The position numbers and the translations under genes are program-made. The notes below the pieces were generated by a model, which was not told the origin of the DNA, searched no databases, and saw only the letters and a list, made by a program, of their open reading frames with translations. This document shows positions 1,651 through 10,037 of a stretch of DNA of 25,277 nucleotides, piece after piece. How positions within the stretch are numbered: position 1 is the stretch's first letter; the number at the start of each line of letters is the position of its first letter. Origin of the DNA: Nitrososphaerota archaeon (GTDB taxonomy: Archaea; Thermoproteota; Nitrososphaeria_A; Caldarchaeales; Calditenuaceae); assembly GCA_038845265.1 (NCBI GenBank), contig JAWBQR010000013.1, positions 1-25,277 of the forward strand. The letters run 5' to 3'.

Positions 1651-2409
1651 TTAGCTCAAACGATTAAGCCAATAGAGTTTTTTCCTACTCCAAAGCTCAA
1701 GCCCATCTTCTAACCCATATGGTATTATGAAATCCTTAACGAAACATATGTGTTCTCTTATTGAGTTAAGAATTTCTTGTTGATCTACATTCTTAATACT
1801 CATTCGTCTGGTCAATGCTTCTATCGGTGGAAGATGAAATGGCAGACCAGTATATTTAATCTGCGATTTACAGTATCTGCTTAACTGCCTCTTAAGAAAT
1901 GATCCGTCGTATCCAGTGATACATACCGCCTTACCGTATTTCGAGGCCTCTGTAGCTATATATTCTGCCTCTTCTCTGATCCATTTCTCAAAATCACAGG
2001 TTCTTGTCGAAAGAATATTCAGCCATCTATCAATACTTATTCTGTTTGTTATAATATCATGTAATGTAAGCTGAGCTGATAGGAAGGCGAACTCTATCTC
2101 TAATTTGCTCTTTAAAACAGAGCCATAACAGTACACTTCTCTGCCACGAGATAGGGAGCATAAAGCCATTAAAAGCTCTTCGTAGCCTCTTATTGAAGAT
2201 ATTGGAAATGTCTCACTGGGCATTATTTCTAAAATCTGTTTGATGAAGAGATCGAAATTTTTATGCTTCAAATATTCAGAGACGTAACATTCAAATTCTC
2301 TTGGCAGGTCTATGAATACTGAATCGAATTCTAACTCTTTGAGTAATTTAATAGTCTCTATCGTTGCCCTCTTAGTCGGTGGCTTTACAATGACATAAAC
2401 TGCGCACAT
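1651..2409 (-). CDS. hypothetical protein (252 aa)
   Basis: Long ORF, co-directional with and 38 nt downstream of the M50 protease gene. No family recognised by eye. Confidence 0.5.
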   Translation of the reverse strand: MCAVYVIVKPPTKRATIETIKLLKELEFDSVFIDLPREFECYVSEYLKHKNFDLFIKQILEIMPSETFPISSIRGYEELLMALCSLSRGREVYCYGSVLKSKLEIEFAFLSAQLTLHDIITNRISIDRWLNILSTRTCDFEKWIREEAEYIATEASKYGKAVCITGYDGSFLKRQLSRYCKSQIKYTGLPFHLPPIEALTRRMSIKNVDQQEILNSIREHICFVKDFIIPYGLEDGLELWSRKKLYWLNRLS

Positions 2410-2447: not shown

Positions 2448-3731
2448 TTAAGCCAGGAGAGCGAGATAGGGTACCATGATAAGAGAGAAGATCAACCCTA
2501 CCAATACTAAGGTCACTGAGACTGATAAGTAAAATGCTGACTTTTCACCTAGTTTCTTACCTATCGTTATTGAGAAAAGTTTTCGTAAAGCCTGGCCTCC
2601 GTCAAGTGGATATATTGGAAGGGCATTGAATATTGCTACGTTTATATTTACGAACCATATCCAAAAAAGAAGGTTCGCTATGATATAATAATTTTGTCCA
2701 AATAATGGATGAATGTATAGTGATTTGACGTCGAAGCAGGCTGTTGTCGTTGACTGATTCGTTGTTGAACAGATCATCCTATCAGAATAAGGATGCAAAA
2801 CTGTCGGATACGAAGGTGGCACAAGGTGAATTATTGGATTTTTTAATGCAACATTTTTGTAGGAATCCAAATATTGCACAGACCACTCTAAAATGTCGCT
2901 ATTGGCAATTTTTACTCCTATCATGGGATGCCCGCCTCCTAGATCCCTTAACTCTACGTTAAATTTCTTAACCTCTTTTACATCCTTTCTAAGCACGCTG
3001 ACGGTTACGTATTCCCCGAATTTCTTAGATTCAAGAATCTTTCTCAACTCTGTTAGAGAGCTTATTTGTTTGTCGTCGATCGCTATAATCTCGTCTCCAG
3101 GCATTATGCCAACTTCACTTGCTGAAGAGCTAGGCAGTACTTCAGACACGATGATTCCTAGTGCTGGCTGTAGTCCTGTGATTATTATTAATAATCCCAC
3201 TAGGCACAGGGTCGCAACAGCAACATTAGATATTGGGCCGCCTGATAACACACGTGCAACATCACGAGTTTTACCGGACTTTAGTTCCTCCTCGTTTATT
3301 TCTACAAAGGCGCCGATAGGTATTCCTAAAAACAATATCATTCCAGTCGTTTTCACTTGATAGCCAACCATTCTAGCGATTATGCCATGCATAGATTCAT
3401 GAGCTATTATCGCGACCAAGATTCCTATCCAGCCATAAATAATCGGTAGGTAGGGATTAATCCCGGGGATTAAAAGTAAAGACTGAGGGCCAGCCTCTCT
3501 CTGTGCCTCCTGAACCTCAGGTCTTGTAAGAACTAGCATTACAGAATTAACAAGCAGTAAGATTCCTCCGGCTGCTACGAATGGTAATAAAAAAATTGAT
3601 ATCCAGCTGAAAACTCTCGTTAACCTAGTTCCAGCGACTTTCTCATAGAACTTAAGCAGTCTATCTGTCTTCAATAAAATAAATGGAAGCTTGACCTCTA
3701 TTGCCAAGTCTCTATATGATTTACTAACCAT
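2448..3731 (-). CDS. Site-2 protease, peptidase M50 family, polytopic membrane protein with an inserted PDZ domain
   Basis: HExxH (AHESMHG) sits in a hydrophobic segment. The second M50 motif NALPIYPLDGGQ is present. A PDZ-like segment (GIMPGDEIIAIDDKQISSLTEL) lies between them, and there are multiple hydrophobic helices. Confidence 0.85.
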   Translation of the reverse strand: MVSKSYRDLAIEVKLPFILLKTDRLLKFYEKVAGTRLTRVFSWISIFLLPFVAAGGILLLVNSVMLVLTRPEVQEAQREAGPQSLLLIPGINPYLPIIYGWIGILVAIIAHESMHGIIARMVGYQVKTTGMILFLGIPIGAFVEINEEELKSGKTRDVARVLSGGPISNVAVATLCLVGLLIIITGLQPALGIIVSEVLPSSSASEVGIMPGDEIIAIDDKQISSLTELRKILESKKFGEYVTVSVLRKDVKEVKKFNVELRDLGGGHPMIGVKIANSDILEWSVQYLDSYKNVALKNPIIHLVPPSYPTVLHPYSDRMICSTTNQSTTTACFDVKSLYIHPLFGQNYYIIANLLFWIWFVNINVAIFNALPIYPLDGGQALRKLFSITIGKKLGEKSAFYLSVSVTLVLVGLIFSLIMVPYLALLA

Positions 3732-3751
3732 CTACCATTAATCCGCAAACC

Positions 3752-3759
3752 TATTTAAT
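3752..3759 (-). promoter_or_regulatory. TATA-like box (ATTAAATA on minus strand) for the M50 protease gene
   Basis: Centred about 24 nt upstream of ATG 3731, which implies a leaderless or near-leaderless mRNA. Confidence 0.35.
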
Positions 3760-3909
3760 AACGATTTAGAACGTACTTCTTGATTCCAAAAATGACTTCA
3801 TTAAATTAAGTAATTTTTGTAGGAGTAATACTCTAAGAATATGCAATAAAAGGAAAATAAAAATGATTAAATAAGAGATAAAATTTATCCCACAGACGAG
3901 GCCGGAAAA

Positions 3910-4100
3910 GGAGAAGGGGGAATCGCTCAAATCTACGACTTAACCCGGGGTAAGCCCTGGTTTAAGTAGTAGATTAATGCGAGCCCCCCATCGGATTCGA
4001 GGTGATAATGCCCTAAGAATCCGTTGGACCAATCTTCGGGGAAAGGCGGGGCGAACACCAGCCGTCCCCGGAGTAAGTCCTCCTCCGAAAGCCCCTTAAT
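3910..4100 (+). ncRNA. Unclassified GC-rich structured RNA of about 190 nt with a four-way-junction (giant cloverleaf-like) fold; strand tentative
   Basis: Hand count gives about 56% G+C over 3901-4095 versus about 21% over 3781-3880. Closing stem 3910-3915/4081-4086. Hairpin 3916-3989 has about 28 bp and a UAAG loop. Hairpin 3992-4023 has 7 bp and an 18-nt loop GAGGUGAUAAUGCCCUAA. Hairpin 4026-4080 is branched and GC-rich. Linkers are only 2 nt. An AAATTTAT box at 3881-3888 predicts a TSS near G3910, and a T4 run lies at 4103-4106. Three G.U pairs (3947.3958, 4046.4065, 4071.4036) work only on the + strand and two other positions only on the - strand. No ORF is present. Confidence 0.6.
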
Positions 4101-4118
4101 CATTTTAAAGTATCATTT

Positions 4119-4757
4119 CTATGTTATCGATAGAAATTTTTGAAAATATTGGTCTGGAGATAATTCATTCACTTCAAAATCATCGATATTCAGTATAAAC
4201 ACTGAATGTAATCTACATCTTTTAAGTTCATCATAAGTTATCGGTGGATTAGAATAATATTTGTCACAGAGAATCTTGAGTTTGTTTAATTCTTGTTCTT
4301 CACGGAATCTGGGCGGTTTCAGAAGTTCCGCAGGAATTTCAAGGATATTGTGCCTTGGAGTTGCTAAGCAGAACTTATTCGCAAATATGCTATATCTAGC
4401 TACTTTGCTTACAATTCTCGCCTGAAGATACATCAATGGATCTAATGCATGGTCAGGCGGTGTAAAACCAGTCTCCACCTCAACTATAACTACACCCTCA
4501 CCCTTTACTCCATAAACATCACAAACAAGTAAGTCTGAAAGCATACGCTCAACATCAACCGAATATCCTCTCAAGACTAAATATGCTGCACATATCATTT
4601 CCATTATAGAGTGATTTATCTTTACTAGTTTCTGTCTATATAGTTCTGAAAGCTTTATCAATAATTTCTTAAGTTCTCTCTCAACCATTACGCCATATCT
4701 ATCAATAAGCTTCTTGAAAACTATCTCCAAATCATTATCGAATTTCTCCATGTTCAT
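4119..4757 (-). CDS. hypothetical protein (212 aa) with a possible PD-(D/E)xK (restriction-endonuclease-like / Hjc-like) core
   Basis: The segment SIMEMICAAYLVLRGYSVDVER..LLVCDVYGVKGEGVVIVEVETG follows the helix-E / strand-D / strand-ExK layout of Hjc-type nucleases, but reads E-V-E instead of E-x-K. It starts 13 nt downstream of the mtaC-like stop on the same strand. Confidence 0.5.
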   Translation of the reverse strand: MNMEKFDNDLEIVFKKLIDRYGVMVERELKKLLIKLSELYRQKLVKINHSIMEMICAAYLVLRGYSVDVERMLSDLLVCDVYGVKGEGVVIVEVETGFTPPDHALDPLMYLQARIVSKVARYSIFANKFCLATPRHNILEIPAELLKPPRFREEQELNKLKILCDKYYSNPPITYDELKRCRLHSVFILNIDDFEVNELSPDQYFQKFLSIT

Positions 4758-4770
4758 ATTATTTCATGAG

Positions 4771-5418
4771 TTACTTGACCCATAATTTACATATTTTTAC
4801 TCCTTCAAATGCATTCTCTCCATATCCATCGGCACCTATTTCTTCTGCGTATTCTTTAGTTAGGGGGGCGCCGCCAACTATAATCTTCACTCTGTCTCTA
4901 ACATTTGCTTTCTTGAGTTCCTCTATAACAATTCTCATCTCTGGCATTGTAACTGTTAAGAGTGCTGAGAGAGCTACAATATTAGCTTCATTCCTGATTA
5001 CAGCGTCTACGAATTTTTCAGGGGCTACGTCTGCGCCTAGATCAATAACCTCAAATCCAGCTGTCTCAAGCAGCATTGCTACAATGTTCTTACCGATGTC
5101 ATGAATATCTCCCCTGACAGTGCCGATAACTACTTTTCCCAATTTTTTAGCTGGGACGCCACTGGCCTTTAGAATCGGGTTGAGGATGCTTATTATTTGT
5201 TTACTTATCTCGCCTGCAGCTATTAATTCTGATAGGAAGTATTCTCCTTTTTCAAATTTTTCTCCAACGATCTCTAACCCTTTAACTATAGAATTTGAAA
5301 TTATTTCTTGTGGATTCACTCCAGCATTTATGGCTTCTTTTGTGTACTCTAATGCTAAATCATTCTGAATATTAATTATAGCCTCTTTAATCTTTTCAAT
5401 TAGCTCCTCTTTCTGCAT
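4771..5418 (-). CDS. mtaC: Corrinoid (cobalamin-binding) methyltransferase protein, MtaC/MtbC family
   Basis: N-terminal helical cap followed by a Rossmann-like B12-binding domain. It carries the DxHxxG motif (GDIHDIGKNIV), SxL (LSALLT) and GG (IIVGGAPL). Confidence 0.85.
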   Translation of the reverse strand: MQKEELIEKIKEAIINIQNDLALEYTKEAINAGVNPQEIISNSIVKGLEIVGEKFEKGEYFLSELIAAGEISKQIISILNPILKASGVPAKKLGKVVIGTVRGDIHDIGKNIVAMLLETAGFEVIDLGADVAPEKFVDAVIRNEANIVALSALLTVTMPEMRIVIEELKKANVRDRVKIIVGGAPLTKEYAEEIGADGYGENAFEGVKICKLWVK

Positions 5419-5505
5419 GTTTTTCAGTTAAATAATTATGTCTGGAATAAAAATATTTTTCGAGGACTAAAATAATCATTTTTAGAGAGGAAACTTTACA
5501 AATTT

Positions 5506-7386
5506 ATGAGTAAAGTGAATGGAAAGAATCTACATAGACTCAAAACAATAATAAATGATAGAGAAATTGAACTATGGATTAACCCTAGTGAAACATTACT
5601 AGAGAACTTAATTCATCATGGAATAGAAATAGATAATCTATGTGGAGGAAGAGGAATATGTGGAAAATGTTCAGTGAAAATCCTAGAAGGAAAACTATCA
5701 CAACCATCAGATATTGAAAAAAAGTGGTTGAATATTCTTGGAAAAGATATGAGGCTGAGTTGTCAGGCAAAAACCCTCACAGACTCCGTAATAAAAATTG
5801 AAAGAATCAGTAGCGCCAGCGATGGAAAGATACTTACGTGGCGGAGAAGGAGGGACATAGGACTAAAGCCCAGAATCACCGTTAAAACTATCAAACTCGA
5901 AATTCCAGCGATATTTGATGGAAGAGGAGACCTAGAAAGACTTTTGGATGCCTCTCACATACAGAATTACGACCCTTTAATAGTAAAATATGTCTCAAGT
6001 GTCATTAGAGAAGTTGGTAACGAAGTTAGAGTAGTTCTGTATGATGGAGAAATTATTGACTTGATTCCCAGTAAGAGTATGTGTAGACTAATGGGCGCCG
6101 CAGTCGATATAGGGACGACGACTGTAGTGCTTTCTATATATGACTTGCTGACAGGCGATGTCGTTGCAACCGAGTCATCATATAATCAACAAATAATGTT
6201 CGGAGAAGACGTTATAACTAGAGTTGATTATGCTTCAAGAAATATAACGAATGTTGATGAATTAAGGAACGCAATCATTAATACAATAAATGATTTATTC
6301 AATAATGTGTTTAAAAACAATAACCTAGAAAATCGATATTTATATGAAGTAGTATGTTCAGGGAATACAACTATGCTCTCATTTTTGTTTGGTAATAATT
6401 TTTATTACTCTACCAGGGCTCCCTTCATTCCTCCATTTACTTCATCTATTAAAGTTAAGGCAAGAGATTTAGGAATAAAAATAAATTCTAATGGATACAT
6501 AAGAACGCTGCCATCCATCTCTTCATACATAGGAGGCGACGTAGTTGCCGATATACTATCCTCTGGGCTTCATGAATATGAAGGAATAGCAGTGCTTTTA
6601 GACATTGGCACTAATGGCGAAATCGTGCTAAAGTCCCGTTCAGGAGAGTTATTAGCAACTTCATGTGCAGCTGGCCCAGCTTTAGAGGGTTACGGGATAA
6701 AGCATGGGATGAGAGCAACTAAAGGAGCAATAGAATCGATTATTATAGACGAGGAAGGAAGGAGCTACTATAGAGTCATCGGCAATACTAAACCGATTGG
6801 AATTTGTGGCTCTGGAGTAGTAGAAGCAGTAGCTTGGATGTGGATAAGAGGGATTATCGATGATTCTGGGAGAATGCTTAAAAACACGTATAGGTTGTTT
6901 TCTATGAGTGGAGACGAGCTCCAATATATACTCGTTCCAGCAAATGAGGCAAGTAACTTAAAAGAAATTACCATAACTCAAAGCGATATCCGTAAGATTC
7001 AACTAGCAAAGGCCGCCATATTCAGCGCATTTATAACTCTTCTACGCATTGCAAAAATAAGTATCGAAGACATCGAGAGAGTATTCGTGGCAGGGGCATT
7101 TGGCAATTATTTAGACATTTTCGCGGCTCAAATACTAGGCATGCTCCCAGACATTCCACGAGACCGATTCTCCTTCATAGGGAATGGCTCCCTAGCTGGA
7201 GCAGAGATGATGCTGCTCTCAAAAGATATCGAGGACCAACTACAGGAGATAATTAAAAAAACTAAAGTAATTGAGCTAAACATAGTGAAAGATTTTCAGA
7301 AGGAATTCATCGATGCCACCCAAATTCCACATGCAAGAAAAGAGCTATTCAGAAACGTTATAAACGAAGCTGTCTCTCTAAGATAG
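5506..7386 (+). CDS. Reductive activator of corrinoid enzymes (RACE/RACo-type): N-terminal plant-type [2Fe-2S] ferredoxin domain plus ASKHA-fold ATPase (DUF4445-like)
   Basis: Cys pattern CGGRGICGKCSV...LSCQA in the first 90 aa. ASKHA phosphate motifs AVDIGTTTVV and LLDIGTNGEIVL are present. The length of 626 aa is typical of the family. Confidence 0.8.
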   Translation: MSKVNGKNLHRLKTIINDREIELWINPSETLLENLIHHGIEIDNLCGGRGICGKCSVKILEGKLSQPSDIEKKWLNILGKDMRLSCQAKTLTDSVIKIERISSASDGKILTWRRRRDIGLKPRITVKTIKLEIPAIFDGRGDLERLLDASHIQNYDPLIVKYVSSVIREVGNEVRVVLYDGEIIDLIPSKSMCRLMGAAVDIGTTTVVLSIYDLLTGDVVATESSYNQQIMFGEDVITRVDYASRNITNVDELRNAIINTINDLFNNVFKNNNLENRYLYEVVCSGNTTMLSFLFGNNFYYSTRAPFIPPFTSSIKVKARDLGIKINSNGYIRTLPSISSYIGGDVVADILSSGLHEYEGIAVLLDIGTNGEIVLKSRSGELLATSCAAGPALEGYGIKHGMRATKGAIESIIIDEEGRSYYRVIGNTKPIGICGSGVVEAVAWMWIRGIIDDSGRMLKNTYRLFSMSGDELQYILVPANEASNLKEITITQSDIRKIQLAKAAIFSAFITLLRIAKISIEDIERVFVAGAFGNYLDIFAAQILGMLPDIPRDRFSFIGNGSLAGAEMMLLSKDIEDQLQEIIKKTKVIELNIVKDFQKEFIDATQIPHARKELFRNVINEAVSLR

Positions 7387-7388
7387 TT

Positions 7389-8738
7389 TTAGACTTCTAA
7401 ATAATCTTTAACTTTCAGCTTTTCAACTCTACCCTCAAAAGAAACGAGGGCTTCTTCAATTTTTTTGTGAGCATTATCTAATAAGTTTTCAAGCGATTTT
7501 CTAATCATTTCTAAAATTCTAGTTTCACTGGGTGATAATTTTAATTTGTCTTCTTTTGCGATTAAGTTAAGGGCCTTAAGTCCAGCGGCCATAGTTCTCT
7601 CAAGCTCGTCTTCATGACTTACTAATTCATAGGCAATTTCTTGAGCTACTTTAGGAGCAAGTACATATGCCTGCGGATCAGAATATATATCAGACTCGAC
7701 AAGTAAATCTCTTAACTCTTTCTGCCATCCGAGTTCAATTGCCTTGTTCAATAGTTTTGTATCATAGTATAATATTTCAAGAAAGACTTGCGGGCCATAT
7801 CCACCGAATAGTTTAACATTTTCGATCTGCTCATTTGACCAGAGATCAGCGGCAGCTTGAGAAATATTTCCTAAAAGGCTTGAGTGGGCTGATGCGGAAC
7901 TTTTTCCTTCCATCGAGATTGGATACCCAGTTATAGACTTTATAATTATGTTCTCATAACCACAATCTTTTCCAGGACCAATTGCTCCCATCTCATATGC
8001 AACCAAACTTCTACTAGCTGACATTGCCCTGATAATTGCTGCTAAGGTGTGAGGTATGACGCGGTCTTTGAATCCGCCTGCTAGTTTCATGGCTGTATTG
8101 GCAAAGCCACAAGCAGTATCCCCGCCCGGAATTACGTTGTTGGTTCTAGCAATACTGACGATTTCTTTCCAAATTTTTTTCATGTCAAGTATAGCTAGGT
8201 ATCCCAGCGAGGCGGTTATACCTACTAAGTCTTGTCTTATAACTGCATAGTTGAATAACTCTTTTCCACCAAGAGATTCTATTGATAATACATCCGCACC
8301 ATTTTTAGACACCTCTTCAAATGTTTCAAGCATTTTGTTGAGAGACTCTTCATCGTTTTTAGGTTTCGCGAAGTCACGAATGTCAGCCACAGTTACGCGG
8401 AACCCTATCCTTAAATCATGTTCCTTTGAATATTTTTCAATAATCTCTCTTTGCTTATTAATTATCTCTCCGGCAAGTTTTGGCTGCGTGGTCTCGATGT
8501 ATGTCAGCTCCGTCTCCAACTGCAGGTCCATTATTCCTAAATCTAACGCCCTCTTCAAAACATCTTCCGTGATTTTTATGTATTCATCCTTAAGGTCCTT
8601 ATCAGCTCTCGGAAAATATTTTATCTCAGGGATTACTTTGCCTATCCCAACTTCTAGGCCAGTACCATATCTTAATGGATGCTTTGAATATCCAAAAACT
8701 AATTCGTCAGCACTCATCTCCAATGACTTGAACCTCAT
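7389..8738 (-). CDS. mtaB: Methanol:corrinoid methyltransferase, MtaB family
   Basis: These blocks match my recollection of Methanosarcina MtaB: ELVFGYSKHP, IPEIKYFPR, NGADVLSIESLGGKELFNYAV, GGDTACGFANTAM, RSLVAYEMGAIGPGKDCGYENIIIKSITGYPISMEGKSSASAHS. The Zn-ligand positions (E in ESxGGKE, C in DTAC, C in KDCGYE) are conserved. Confidence 0.85.
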   Translation of the reverse strand: MRFKSLEMSADELVFGYSKHPLRYGTGLEVGIGKVIPEIKYFPRADKDLKDEYIKITEDVLKRALDLGIMDLQLETELTYIETTQPKLAGEIINKQREIIEKYSKEHDLRIGFRVTVADIRDFAKPKNDEESLNKMLETFEEVSKNGADVLSIESLGGKELFNYAVIRQDLVGITASLGYLAILDMKKIWKEIVSIARTNNVIPGGDTACGFANTAMKLAGGFKDRVIPHTLAAIIRAMSASRSLVAYEMGAIGPGKDCGYENIIIKSITGYPISMEGKSSASAHSSLLGNISQAAADLWSNEQIENVKLFGGYGPQVFLEILYYDTKLLNKAIELGWQKELRDLLVESDIYSDPQAYVLAPKVAQEIAYELVSHEDELERTMAAGLKALNLIAKEDKLKLSPSETRILEMIRKSLENLLDNAHKKIEEALVSFEGRVEKLKVKDYLEV

Positions 8739-8900
8739 TTAATAATTCACCTTAGCTACGTATCTCAGAAAATACTACTCTCCAAAAATATAAGCATTAA
8801 TATCTCGATGAGCAATAAATTAAATTGTTTAAGATACTCTAAGCTTTTTACTTTAATTAAACTTTTATAATTGACTACCGAATATTTACTTGCTTAGGCC

Positions 8901-10037
8901 TTGGTAGAACCTATAGAACGCGTATTATCAGTTCTCAATCATAAGGAGCCACCCGACAGAATTCCAATTGATTTTGGAAGTCCAATAAATGGTATTCACC
9001 ACATTGCTTTAAGGAGGCTCTTATCTTTTATTGGAGCAGAAAACTACCCAGTGATTATATTTGATAAGATGCAAGGACTTGCAGAAGTTCCTGAATTTTT
9101 GCTACGGCATTTCGGCGTAGATTTTAGACACGTAAGAATTAATCCTCCACTCGTAAGTGAGGTCAGATACATATCCCAAGACAGCTTCGTAGACGAGTTT
9201 GGAATAACATTTGAGAGACGTGGATATTATTTTGAGATGGTTGAGGATAAAAAACCTCTGTACAACGCGAAGACTCTGCAGGACGTAGAGAAATATATTC
9301 CTCCAAAAGCTCATGAAGGTAGGGTCAGAGGGCTTAGAAAAATTGCTAAGCATTATAACGAGGACGGCTACGCAGTTGCGATGAACTGGTTCACTGGTGG
9401 ATTATGGGAATTAACTCAGTGGCTTCACGGTATCTCAAACTCTTTGAGAGATATAGTCCTGAATCCAGAATTGATGAATGCAATTCTTGACAAAGTATTA
9501 GAGATACATATGAATTTTATTGAAATTATATTGAACGAAGTAGGGGATTATATCCACATTATGCGGTACGGCGATGATTACGGAACCCAGCTAGGTCCTC
9601 AAATGTCCCCTAAGGCATGGGAATACTTCATTTATCCTAGACTAAAAAAATTTGTTTCATATATTAAGAATAATGCCAAGGTTAAAGTCCTATTACATTC
9701 CTGCGGAGGAATCAGGCCATTAATACCTAAATTCATCGATGCAGGAATAGATATATTGAATCCACTACAACCAAGAGCGAAAGGAATGGACAGAAAGGAG
9801 CTTAAAAAAGAATTCGGAGGCAAATTAATTTTCCATGGAGGACTAGACGAGCAATATGTTTTGCCAAGAGGTACAATTGAAGAAATAGAAACAGAAGTAA
9901 AAGATGTAATACAGACCTTCTCTCCTGGAGGAGAGTATATCTTCTCACCTGCACACAATATACAGCCAGATGTCCCACCTCAAAACATATTGACTGCTTA
10001 TACAGCGGCTTTATGGTATGGAACATATACAAAATAA
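8901..10037 (+). CDS. Uroporphyrinogen-decarboxylase (URO-D) superfamily methyltransferase, MtaA/MT2-like
   Basis: The N-terminus (VLNHKEPPDRIPIDFG) and the C-terminal blocks (LLHSCGG, DILNPLQP, IFSPAHNIQPDVPPQN) are typical of the URO-D/MtaA/CmuA family. The only in-frame start before these blocks is TTG 8901. It is divergent from mtaB. Confidence 0.7.
   Translation: MVEPIERVLSVLNHKEPPDRIPIDFGSPINGIHHIALRRLLSFIGAENYPVIIFDKMQGLAEVPEFLLRHFGVDFRHVRINPPLVSEVRYISQDSFVDEFGITFERRGYYFEMVEDKKPLYNAKTLQDVEKYIPPKAHEGRVRGLRKIAKHYNEDGYAVAMNWFTGGLWELTQWLHGISNSLRDIVLNPELMNAILDKVLEIHMNFIEIILNEVGDYIHIMRYGDDYGTQLGPQMSPKAWEYFIYPRLKKFVSYIKNNAKVKVLLHSCGGIRPLIPKFIDAGIDILNPLQPRAKGMDRKELKKEFGGKLIFHGGLDEQYVLPRGTIEEIETEVKDVIQTFSPGGEYIFSPAHNIQPDVPPQNILTAYTAALWYGTYTK

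Follow-up and report, generated by a model that had tools for sequence, protein, structure and literature searches.

The window analysed in the present study is a stretch of 25,277 nucleotides from a Nitrososphaerota archaeon (assembly GCA_038845265.1, contig JAWBQR010000013.1, positions 1 to 25,277), and the element in question is an island of about 198 nt at 3898-4095. The island has a G+C content of 56.1%, compared with 25.9% in the flank at 3732-3897, 13% in the flank at 4096-4118 and a mean of 36.6% for the window, and the peak is also observed in the sliding profile. It is bracketed by two minus-strand genes, encoding an M50/PDZ site-2 protease and a protein of 212 amino acids (aa). A reading of the letters by themselves, made before any database search (hereafter the sequence-only reading), had pointed to a G+C-rich island between two minus-strand genes and had proposed a structured functional RNA gene of about 190 nt belonging to no known family. 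The island is confirmed by the values above, and the checks suggested with that reading, namely comparison with Rfam, a search for relatives and a test for covariation, all agree with the RNA proposal, as described below. The island was, however, wrongly described as free of open reading frames (ORFs), as an antisense 56-codon ATG ORF (3933-4103) and a 54-codon TTG ORF (3766-3930) are present. Overall, the island almost certainly carries a real RNA gene, and the family that this gene represents has very probably not been described previously. The features of the locus are as follows.

2448-3731, minus strand: M50/PDZ site-2 protease, 427 aa
3866-3873, plus strand: probable TATA box ATTAAATA after an A-rich stretch resembling a B recognition element (BRE), ending 24 nt before P1 (G3898)
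3898-4095, plus strand: the RNA from the first to the last base of P1, about 198 nt, with its probable ends set by promoter spacing and the T-run
3898-3902, plus strand: 5' strand of the closing stem P1, GaGGC, pairing with 4091-4095 (GCCcC), with one A.C mismatch here
3903-3909, plus strand: 5' side of the internal loop, CGGAAAA (family consensus CGGRANA), facing GAAA at 4087-4090 (consensus GAMR)
3910-3915, plus strand: 5' strand of P2, GGAGaa, pairing with 4081-4086 (uCCUCC)
3916-3989, plus strand: hairpin A, 28 bp, the most variable arm, from the minimum free energy (MFE) fold
3947-3957, plus strand: apex of hairpin A, GGGG-UAAG-CCC (the apex loops of clade 3 are GNRA)
3992-4023, plus strand: hairpin B, a 7-bp stem with an 18-nt loop GAGGUGAUAAUGCCCUAA, from the MFE fold, with a covarying stem
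4001-4004 with 4056-4059, plus strand: predicted kissing segment K1, GGUG : CACC
4009-4014 with 4048-4053, plus strand: predicted kissing segment K2, UGCCCU : GGGGCG
4026-4080, plus strand: hairpin C, unbranched, from the MFE fold and the consensus
4081-4095, plus strand: 3' strands of P2 (4081-4086), of the internal loop (GAAA, 4087-4090) and of P1 (4091-4095)
4103-4106, plus strand: T-run, probable archaeal transcription stop, 8 nt after P1
4119-4757, minus strand: gene of the 212-aa protein, convergent with the RNA, its stop codon 23 nt from the RNA end

The plus strand of the island folds at -96.8 kcal/mol, compared with -68.5 +/- 5.1 kcal/mol for dinucleotide shuffles (z = -5.6), none of which was as stable in 200 trials. 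The MFE architecture consists of a closing stem and three hairpins with 2-nt linkers between the hairpins, which is the shape that had been drawn by eye in the sequence-only reading, including the dimensions of hairpins A and B; the branching ascribed there to hairpin C (4026-4080) is absent from both the MFE fold and the consensus. P1 comprises 6-12 uninterrupted pairs in relatives and is weaker in the window genome, owing to the A.C mismatch. The near-identical contigs L001-L003 have the same weak P1 score as the window, in which the RNA is single-copy.

Homologues of this RNA were observed in three deeply diverged clades of Nitrososphaeria, and all 13 distinct sequences share one shape, in which P1 is followed by a near-invariant, purine-rich 7x4 internal loop, P2 and three hairpins over a total length of 176-220 nt. 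The set is a lower bound, with at least three clades and at least 23 RNA loci. Clade 1 comprises the window together with L004, L007-L010, L013, L015, L017 and L018; clade 2 comprises L012 and L014, whose proteins are labelled as Nitrososphaeria or as metagenome-assembled genomes (MAGs) of Thaumarchaeota; and clade 3 comprises L028-L030 and L055-L059. Relatives of the M50 protease (74-82% identity) yielded syntenic loci with a diverged RNA (L004, L007, L008 and L009/L010). In addition, metagenome contigs were scanned for the two invariant end motifs, GGCCGGRAAAGGAG and CCTYCGANNGCC, separated by 148-178 nt, and at least seven stretches were recovered, of which four belong to clade 1 (L013, L015, L017 and L018), two to clade 2 and one (L016) is a chance match inside coding-like DNA. 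The covariance model R1 scores the four clade-1 stretches at 142-176 bits and the two clade-2 members at 40.8 bits (L014, E = 1.5e-9) and 36.6 bits (L012). Clade 3 was reached through homologues of the 212-aa protein; its RNAs score 32.6 bits (L028-L030, E = 2e-7) and 18.9 bits (L055-L057) with R1, which missed L058/L059, recognised instead through the motif, by eye and with RNAalifold. The folds of distant members are also exceptionally stable, at -132 kcal/mol for L014 (z = -8.2) and -112.8 kcal/mol for L029 (z = -8.4). A loose motif scan of viral contigs gave 24 hits, all chance matches, none of which obtained a score from the covariance model.

The fold is maintained by compensatory change. 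For clade 1, five sequences were aligned with MAFFT and the RNAalifold consensus comprised 69 pairs, 25 of which show compensatory (double-side) changes, compared with 12.3 +/- 2.5 in shuffles (0 of 500 reached 25). When the partners were slid by 1-3 columns, only 4-8 double-change pairs were left, and the proportion of paired cells was 86.9% against 79.3% in shuffles. These changes are distributed over P1 (three pairs), hairpin A (helices 3-5, 13 pairs) and hairpin C (helices 7-8, six pairs), and the stem of hairpin B (helix 6) covaries as well; clade 3 alone provides 11 further compensatory pairs with RNAalifold. Between the clades, P1 has been rewritten and yet remains paired (GCAGGC/GCCUGC, GGGCUGGC/GCCAGCCC and GGGGCGCC/GGCGCCCC), and P2 changes from GGAG:CUCC in clades 1 and 2 to GGGG:CCCC in clade 3, an exchange of A-U for G-C; in clade 2, P2 is extended to 8 bp, and this occurs in two registers. 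Conservation is highest in the internal loop CGGRANA/GAMR, which is nearly identical in 13/13 homologues across the three clades. A K-turn in this loop was considered and rejected, as no register gave tandem G.A / A.G pairs when inspected by hand.

Over two collinear stretches, K1 and K2, the sequence of the 18-nt loop of hairpin B is complementary to that of the apical loop of hairpin C. In the rest of clade 1 the segments read GGUGG : CCACC (K1) and GCCCK : KGGGC (K2), in clade 2 CGUGAGC : GCUCACG and CCCGA : UCGGG, and in clade 3 URGACYC : GGGUCUA and UGGGC : GCCUA. A duplex of 10-12 bp with the same topology can be drawn in 12/12 homologues tested, and shuffled loops reach that level in 0-113 of 2000 trials; the comparison was also made with RNAduplex. 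Because three unrelated sequence solutions give the same two-part duplex, there is good evidence, drawn from the sequences, for a predicted kissing complex that would tie arms B and C together. In clade 3, each kissing loop can also form a local hairpin. In the window genome the fifth K1 pair is lost (A.A). The motif GAGGUGA in the loop of hairpin B, which resembles a Shine-Dalgarno sequence and had been suggested to pair possibly with another loop, does have its complement in the loop of hairpin C. An 11-nt tetraloop receptor (CCUAAG, hairpin B) was also entertained and rejected, as the kissing duplex, a feature that clades 2 and 3 retain, accounts better for these nucleotides.

The orientation of the gene follows from several features. 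In 13/13 homologues the forward strand folds more stably than the reverse complement, by 3.6-27.9 kcal/mol, and the consensus helices contain 40 G-U pairs compared with 18 A.C mismatches. Upstream of P1, all 11 of the homologues aligned on P1 carry AAAG-(A/C)TT(T)AWWA ending 21-25 nt before P1, and every homologue has 4-6 consecutive T residues 5-12 nt downstream of P1. Archaeal promoters usually have the TATA box centred near -26, and with this spacing applied to the conserved box, the transcription start site would lie at or just before P1. The plus-strand orientation and the T-run given in the sequence-only reading were thus borne out, the latter by TTTT at 4103-4106; its TATA box at 3881-3888 was not, for only 9 nt separate the end of this box from the closing stem, too short a distance, and the conserved box is that at 3866-3873. 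Judged from strand stability, the excess of G-U pairs and the conserved upstream box and T-run, the RNA is an independent plus-strand gene, and neither the 3' untranslated region (UTR) of the 212-aa protein gene nor the leader of the protease gene. The relatives do not share a reading frame, the longest stop-free stretch being 37-42 codons in L007, L008 and L009 (37 in L008). In L028 and L029, the 5' two-thirds of the RNA is covered by a 73-aa "protein" (3215-3436, minus strand) predicted by gene callers, and L030 has an RNA match with identical coordinates and score without this call. Public annotation thus sometimes mislabels the RNA as a hypothetical protein, and a covariance model would correct this annotation.

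Comparison with known RNA families gave no assignment. No match to Rfam 15 was obtained at gathering scores over the whole window, and at E<=10 the region 3700-4300 gave noise only (for example lncRNA and miRNA models); the divergent RNAs of L014 and L029 likewise gave no gathering-score match and noise only at E<=10. As a positive control, the Archaea_SRP model found the canonical 314-nt signal recognition particle (SRP) RNA at 117.9 bits on the Nitrososphaerota contig L006. This SRP RNA (L006:2599-2912, minus strand) and a distant M50 homologue are divergent, with the RNA about 1 kb upstream and another gene in between. The placement imitates that of the new RNA with respect to M50 in the window; it is treated as a coincidence, and the two RNAs have no sequence similarity. 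ARAGORN detected 0 tRNA or tmRNA genes in the window. With regard to box C/D and H/ACA guide RNAs, the C box (RUGAUGA, which would go with a D box CUGA) is present in 0/13 homologues, and ACA occurs near the 3' end in 4/13 at inconsistent positions, with hairpins that have no large conserved pockets. RNase P models are absent from the E<=10 matches of the window RNA, L014 and L029. The strands of the RNase P P4 pseudoknot are provided by the conserved regions CR-I (GGAAAGUCC) and CR-V (ACAGAA...GGCUUA); among the 13 homologues, GGAAAGUC was found in 0/13, ACAGRA in 0/13 and GGCUWA in 1/13, and the inter-hairpin linkers of 2-3 nt leave no strands for a P4 pseudoknot. For the SRP helix-8 apex, the SRP54 site with its GGAA tetraloop and AGCA loop motif, CYGGAAGR was found in 1/13 homologues and GGAAGRNAGCA in 0/13. 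A cobalamin riboswitch, suggested by the adjoining mtaC, mtaB and RACo genes, was rejected, with no match of cobalamin models at E<=10, no gene downstream on the strand of the RNA, and corrinoid genes adjoining in clade 1 only. The 427-aa neighbour was also considered as an IscB/TnpB-like nuclease with a guide RNA and proved to be the M50/PDZ site-2 protease. Nor does the locus resemble an omega RNA or bridge RNA, as the neighbours are not TnpB, IscB or IS110, the termini are paired and there is no unstructured variable segment. In the open-access full text, the coverage of which is limited, no description of the RNA or of the 212-aa protein was found.

The constant companion of the RNA is the gene of the 212-aa protein. 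With tblastn over the loci, this gene was found convergent with the RNA in 23/23 RNA loci, with the 3' ends 12-42 nt apart, and six of these 23 RNA-protein loci had been found from the RNA motif alone. The window protein shares 48% identity (E = 1e-70) with the protein next to the L014 RNA, and identity between the clades is 45-57%; the pairing of RNA and protein has therefore survived deep divergence. The other neighbours all differ, and include the M50 protease and mtaC in clade 1; a 649-aa protein, a THUMP methyltransferase and the 16S rRNA gene in clade 2; and, in clade 3, PCNA or enolase-rps2 on one side and a molybdopterin dehydrogenase on the other. In L055-L059 (829-2181) the ribosomal protein S2 gene, itself after enolase, precedes the partner gene by 28-74 nt, whereas in L028-L030 the partner gene comes after PCNA. 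Neighbours of this kind, which take part in information processing, are in keeping with a housekeeping function in the metabolism of nucleic acids. In clade 2 (L014:2565-2654 and L012:988-1077), the partner ORF is about 27 codons longer (...RAGCRRHVAYEHPAT) and overlaps the 3' part of the RNA on the opposite strand; this tail may either be translated or be an artefact of a stop-poor, G+C-rich RNA gene.

The 212-aa protein has no family-threshold match in Pfam, NCBIfam, PADLOC or the sequences of the PDB; the lone sub-threshold match in NCBIfam is YraN (E = 0.008, 16.5 bits against a cut-off of 124). A defence-system or phage-related origin was considered and rejected, with 0 PADLOC matches. 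The AlphaFold model (pLDDT 92.8, pTM 0.90) has an order of elements that matches the restriction-endonuclease-like alpha-beta-beta-beta-alpha-beta core, and the top ranks of a Foldseek search against the PDB, in which all matches were weak, are almost all PD-(D/E)xK nucleases, the matches including CdiA-CT tRNase, SfsA, Can2, NucS, AF1548 and Bax1. The invariant residues include E53, D80, E93, E95, K85, K118, R121, R152 and R182; D80, E93 and E95 lie on strands 2 and 3 with the motif ExE, and K85 and K118 are candidates for a relocated lysine. The model bears a tentative resemblance to the PD-(D/E)xK nucleases. Its family is large, with 1501 homologues (249 representatives at 50% identity), including proteins from Nitrosopumilaceae, Nitrosotalea, Aigarchaeota and Bathyarchaeia.

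The remaining genes near the locus in the window are as follows.

1651-2409, minus strand: 252-aa protein without a Pfam family, directly downstream of the M50 protease
4771-5418, minus strand: MtaC-like B12-binding protein
5506-7386, plus strand: corrinoid activator RACo/RamA
7389-8738, minus strand: MtaB
8901-10037, plus strand: URO-D/MtaA-like methyltransferase

The 252-aa protein occupies the same position in every clade-1 locus that reaches past the protease (L001-L003, L008 and L009). A methanol/corrinoid methyltransferase set, such as that at 4771-10037, is unusual for the class to which the contig would belong, its proteins being labelled Nitrososphaerota; there are no mcr genes within the window, and the closest outgroup proteins are those of Caldarchaeales/Aigarchaeota. 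The contig is also present in GenBank under JAWCAN010000016, in assembly GCA_038864975.1.

Thus, the gene, its strand, its fold, its covariation and the conserved gene pairing among the loci found are established. To our knowledge, RNAs with a complex fold, tertiary contacts and invariant cores are nearly always ribozymes, ligand sensors or the cores of RNA-protein machines, and we know of very few such orphan RNAs from archaea. Herein, we propose that the RNA and the adjoining protein form a ribonucleoprotein; the partnership is one that we infer, and we hold it tentatively, at slightly less than an even chance. In this proposal, a stand-alone RNA gene of about 195 nt on the plus strand would be transcribed from its own TATA-type promoter and would stop at the T-run. 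The transcript would fold into a four-way junction of P1, the invariant internal loop, P2 and three hairpins, with the loops of B and C locked by the kissing duplex, and such a rigid RNA body could serve as a scaffold. The invariant internal loop and P2, near the termini, may provide a protein-binding platform, and the most likely partner would be the PD-(D/E)xK-like protein encoded tail-to-tail, for which the RNA might be a cofactor, a regulator or a substrate of the nuclease within the ribonucleoprotein. A narrower version, in which the RNA is an obligatory subunit (cofactor, specificity element or allosteric regulator) of a new archaeal RNA-dependent nuclease, is unlikely, with a modest share of the probability. 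If it were true, it would describe an RNA-dependent nuclease unrelated to RNase P, CRISPR effectors or OMEGA, chromosomal and vertically inherited in Nitrososphaeria. The fixed partner is in any case a small nuclease-like protein, about 50% identical across Nitrososphaerota, Aigarchaeota and Bathyarchaeia and unnamed in the databases, and both the RNA and the protein are directly open to experiments on binding, cleavage and structure.

Several observations weigh against a ribonucleoprotein of this kind. The Foldseek matches are weak (best E = 1e-3, TM-score at most 0.36), and the canonical lysine of (D/E)xK is replaced (ExE). A tight tail-to-tail pair can persist without shared function, for example through shared termination, and the RNA has no obvious free, variable segment resembling a guide. 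In clade 3, RNAalifold favours an alternative pairing, CGGG:CCCG, around the internal loop, and covariation and conservation rest on 13 distinct RNA sequences. Moreover, no RNA was observed within 1.3-2.5 kb, the length of flank fetched, of the protein gene in 4/7 sampled subfamilies (Nitrosopumilaceae, Aigarchaeota, Bathyarchaeota and L025-L027); the protein may therefore not need the RNA, or the RNA may sit elsewhere in those genomes. This last observation also speaks for the main rival, in which the RNA is a new structured RNA independent of the neighbouring protein. It could then be a scaffold for a different protein, a protein sponge, or an RNA that acts in processing or regulation, and the pairing would reflect inherited gene order or a termination zone common to both genes. 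The protein family is far wider than the loci that adjoin an RNA, and each of the two genes, lying on opposite strands, has a promoter of its own. However, the pairing was found in every RNA locus of three clades in which all other neighbours have changed, including the six loci found without use of the protein, and we regard independence as a serious possibility, less probable than partnership in a ribonucleoprotein.

The remaining explanations are all much less probable. A trans-acting ligand sensor or ribozyme, with cobalamin as a candidate ligand and with the junction and kissing loops building a binding pocket or active site, would suit a complex, compact fold closed by a pseudoknot with a few invariant unpaired purines, and MtaC, MtaB and RACo do adjoin at 4771-8738; yet no gene follows the RNA on its own strand, so that it cannot be a cis riboswitch, clade 1 alone has the Mta genes nearby, and no cobalamin or self-cleaving ribozyme model matched at E<=10, which leaves this explanation improbable. 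Slightly less probable still is a reduced or diverged universal RNA, either a minimal RNase P of type T or an SRP-related RNA consisting of the Alu part only. The size fits, the nested shape with a loop contact recalls either the RNase P catalytic domain, stripped of the specificity domain and with a P6-like contact, or the kissing helices 3/4 of SRP Alu, and the 5' loop CGGAAAAGG is faintly reminiscent of CR-I; against this, no RNase P or SRP model was found at E<=10 on three divergent members, whereas the SRP model works on L006, the short linkers leave no strands for P4, and the CR-I, CR-V and SRP helix-8 motifs are absent from all or nearly all of the 13 homologues. A functional minus strand, as the 3' UTR or terminator of the 212-aa protein gene or the 5' leader of the M50 gene, would render the adjacency trivial. 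The element does start 23 nt past the stop codon of the 212-aa protein, and the minus strand folds at -93.5 kcal/mol (z = -4.5), but the forward strand is the more stable in every homologue (by up to 27.9 kcal/mol), G-U pairs outnumber A.C mismatches, the G-U pairs in the kissing helices would become A.C, and the TATA-like box and T-run flank the plus-strand unit in all clades, including the G+C-richer ones. We therefore consider a minus-strand function very improbable. Finally, a small protein might be encoded by the antisense 56-codon ATG ORF (3933-4103) or by the ORFs called over homologues, such as the 73-aa gene of L028 and L029; with no conserved frame (the stop-free stretches are the short ones given above), length differences among homologues that are not multiples of three, compensatory substitutions in the helices and the call missing from L030 despite its identical RNA match, the probability of this explanation is negligible.

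Among known systems, the new RNA can be set beside RF02357, the type T minimal RNase P RNA of Thermoproteaceae. Both are archaeal, stand-alone, G+C-rich RNAs of about 200 nt, with paired ends, three hairpins arising from a central junction and a long-range contact that uses the loop of the third hairpin. In contrast with the type T RNA, the new RNA has no P4 strands and no CR-I, CR-IV or CR-V, receives no RNase P score at E<=10, and has as its conserved core an internal loop between two nested helices. The SRP Alu domain (RF01857) likewise has adjacent hairpins with pairing loops beside a closing helix. However, the new RNA is about 195 nt long, compared with about 310 nt for archaeal SRP RNA, helices 5, 6 and 8 and the GGAA/AGCA motif are missing from it, its kissing duplex is a two-part helix of 10-12 bp, and the SRP model is silent on it. 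The Hgc RNAs, reportedly described by Klein, Misulovin and Eddy in 2002 as G+C-rich islands in AT-rich hyperthermophilic archaea, are similar in being stand-alone G+C islands in AT-rich intergenic DNA whose function is not known. The new RNA differs from them in showing no similarity to the HgcC, HgcE, HgcF or HgcG models, in its Nitrososphaeria host, in its larger and more complex structure and in its fixed protein-gene partner. Orphan RNAs with a fixed protein neighbour include HEARO (the omega RNA of IscB), OLE with OapA, and bacterial Y RNA (YrlA) with Ro60/Rsr. As with these RNAs, a complex covarying fold is observed and the best functional clue is the conserved adjacent gene; as in Y RNA, paired termini are combined with a conserved internal loop that could hold a protein. 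Unlike HEARO, OLE and YrlA, which lie upstream of their genes on the same strand, the new RNA is convergent with its gene. It has no variable guide segment, and its partner is a family-less PD-(D/E)xK-like protein rather than IscB, TnpB, OapA or a TROVE protein.

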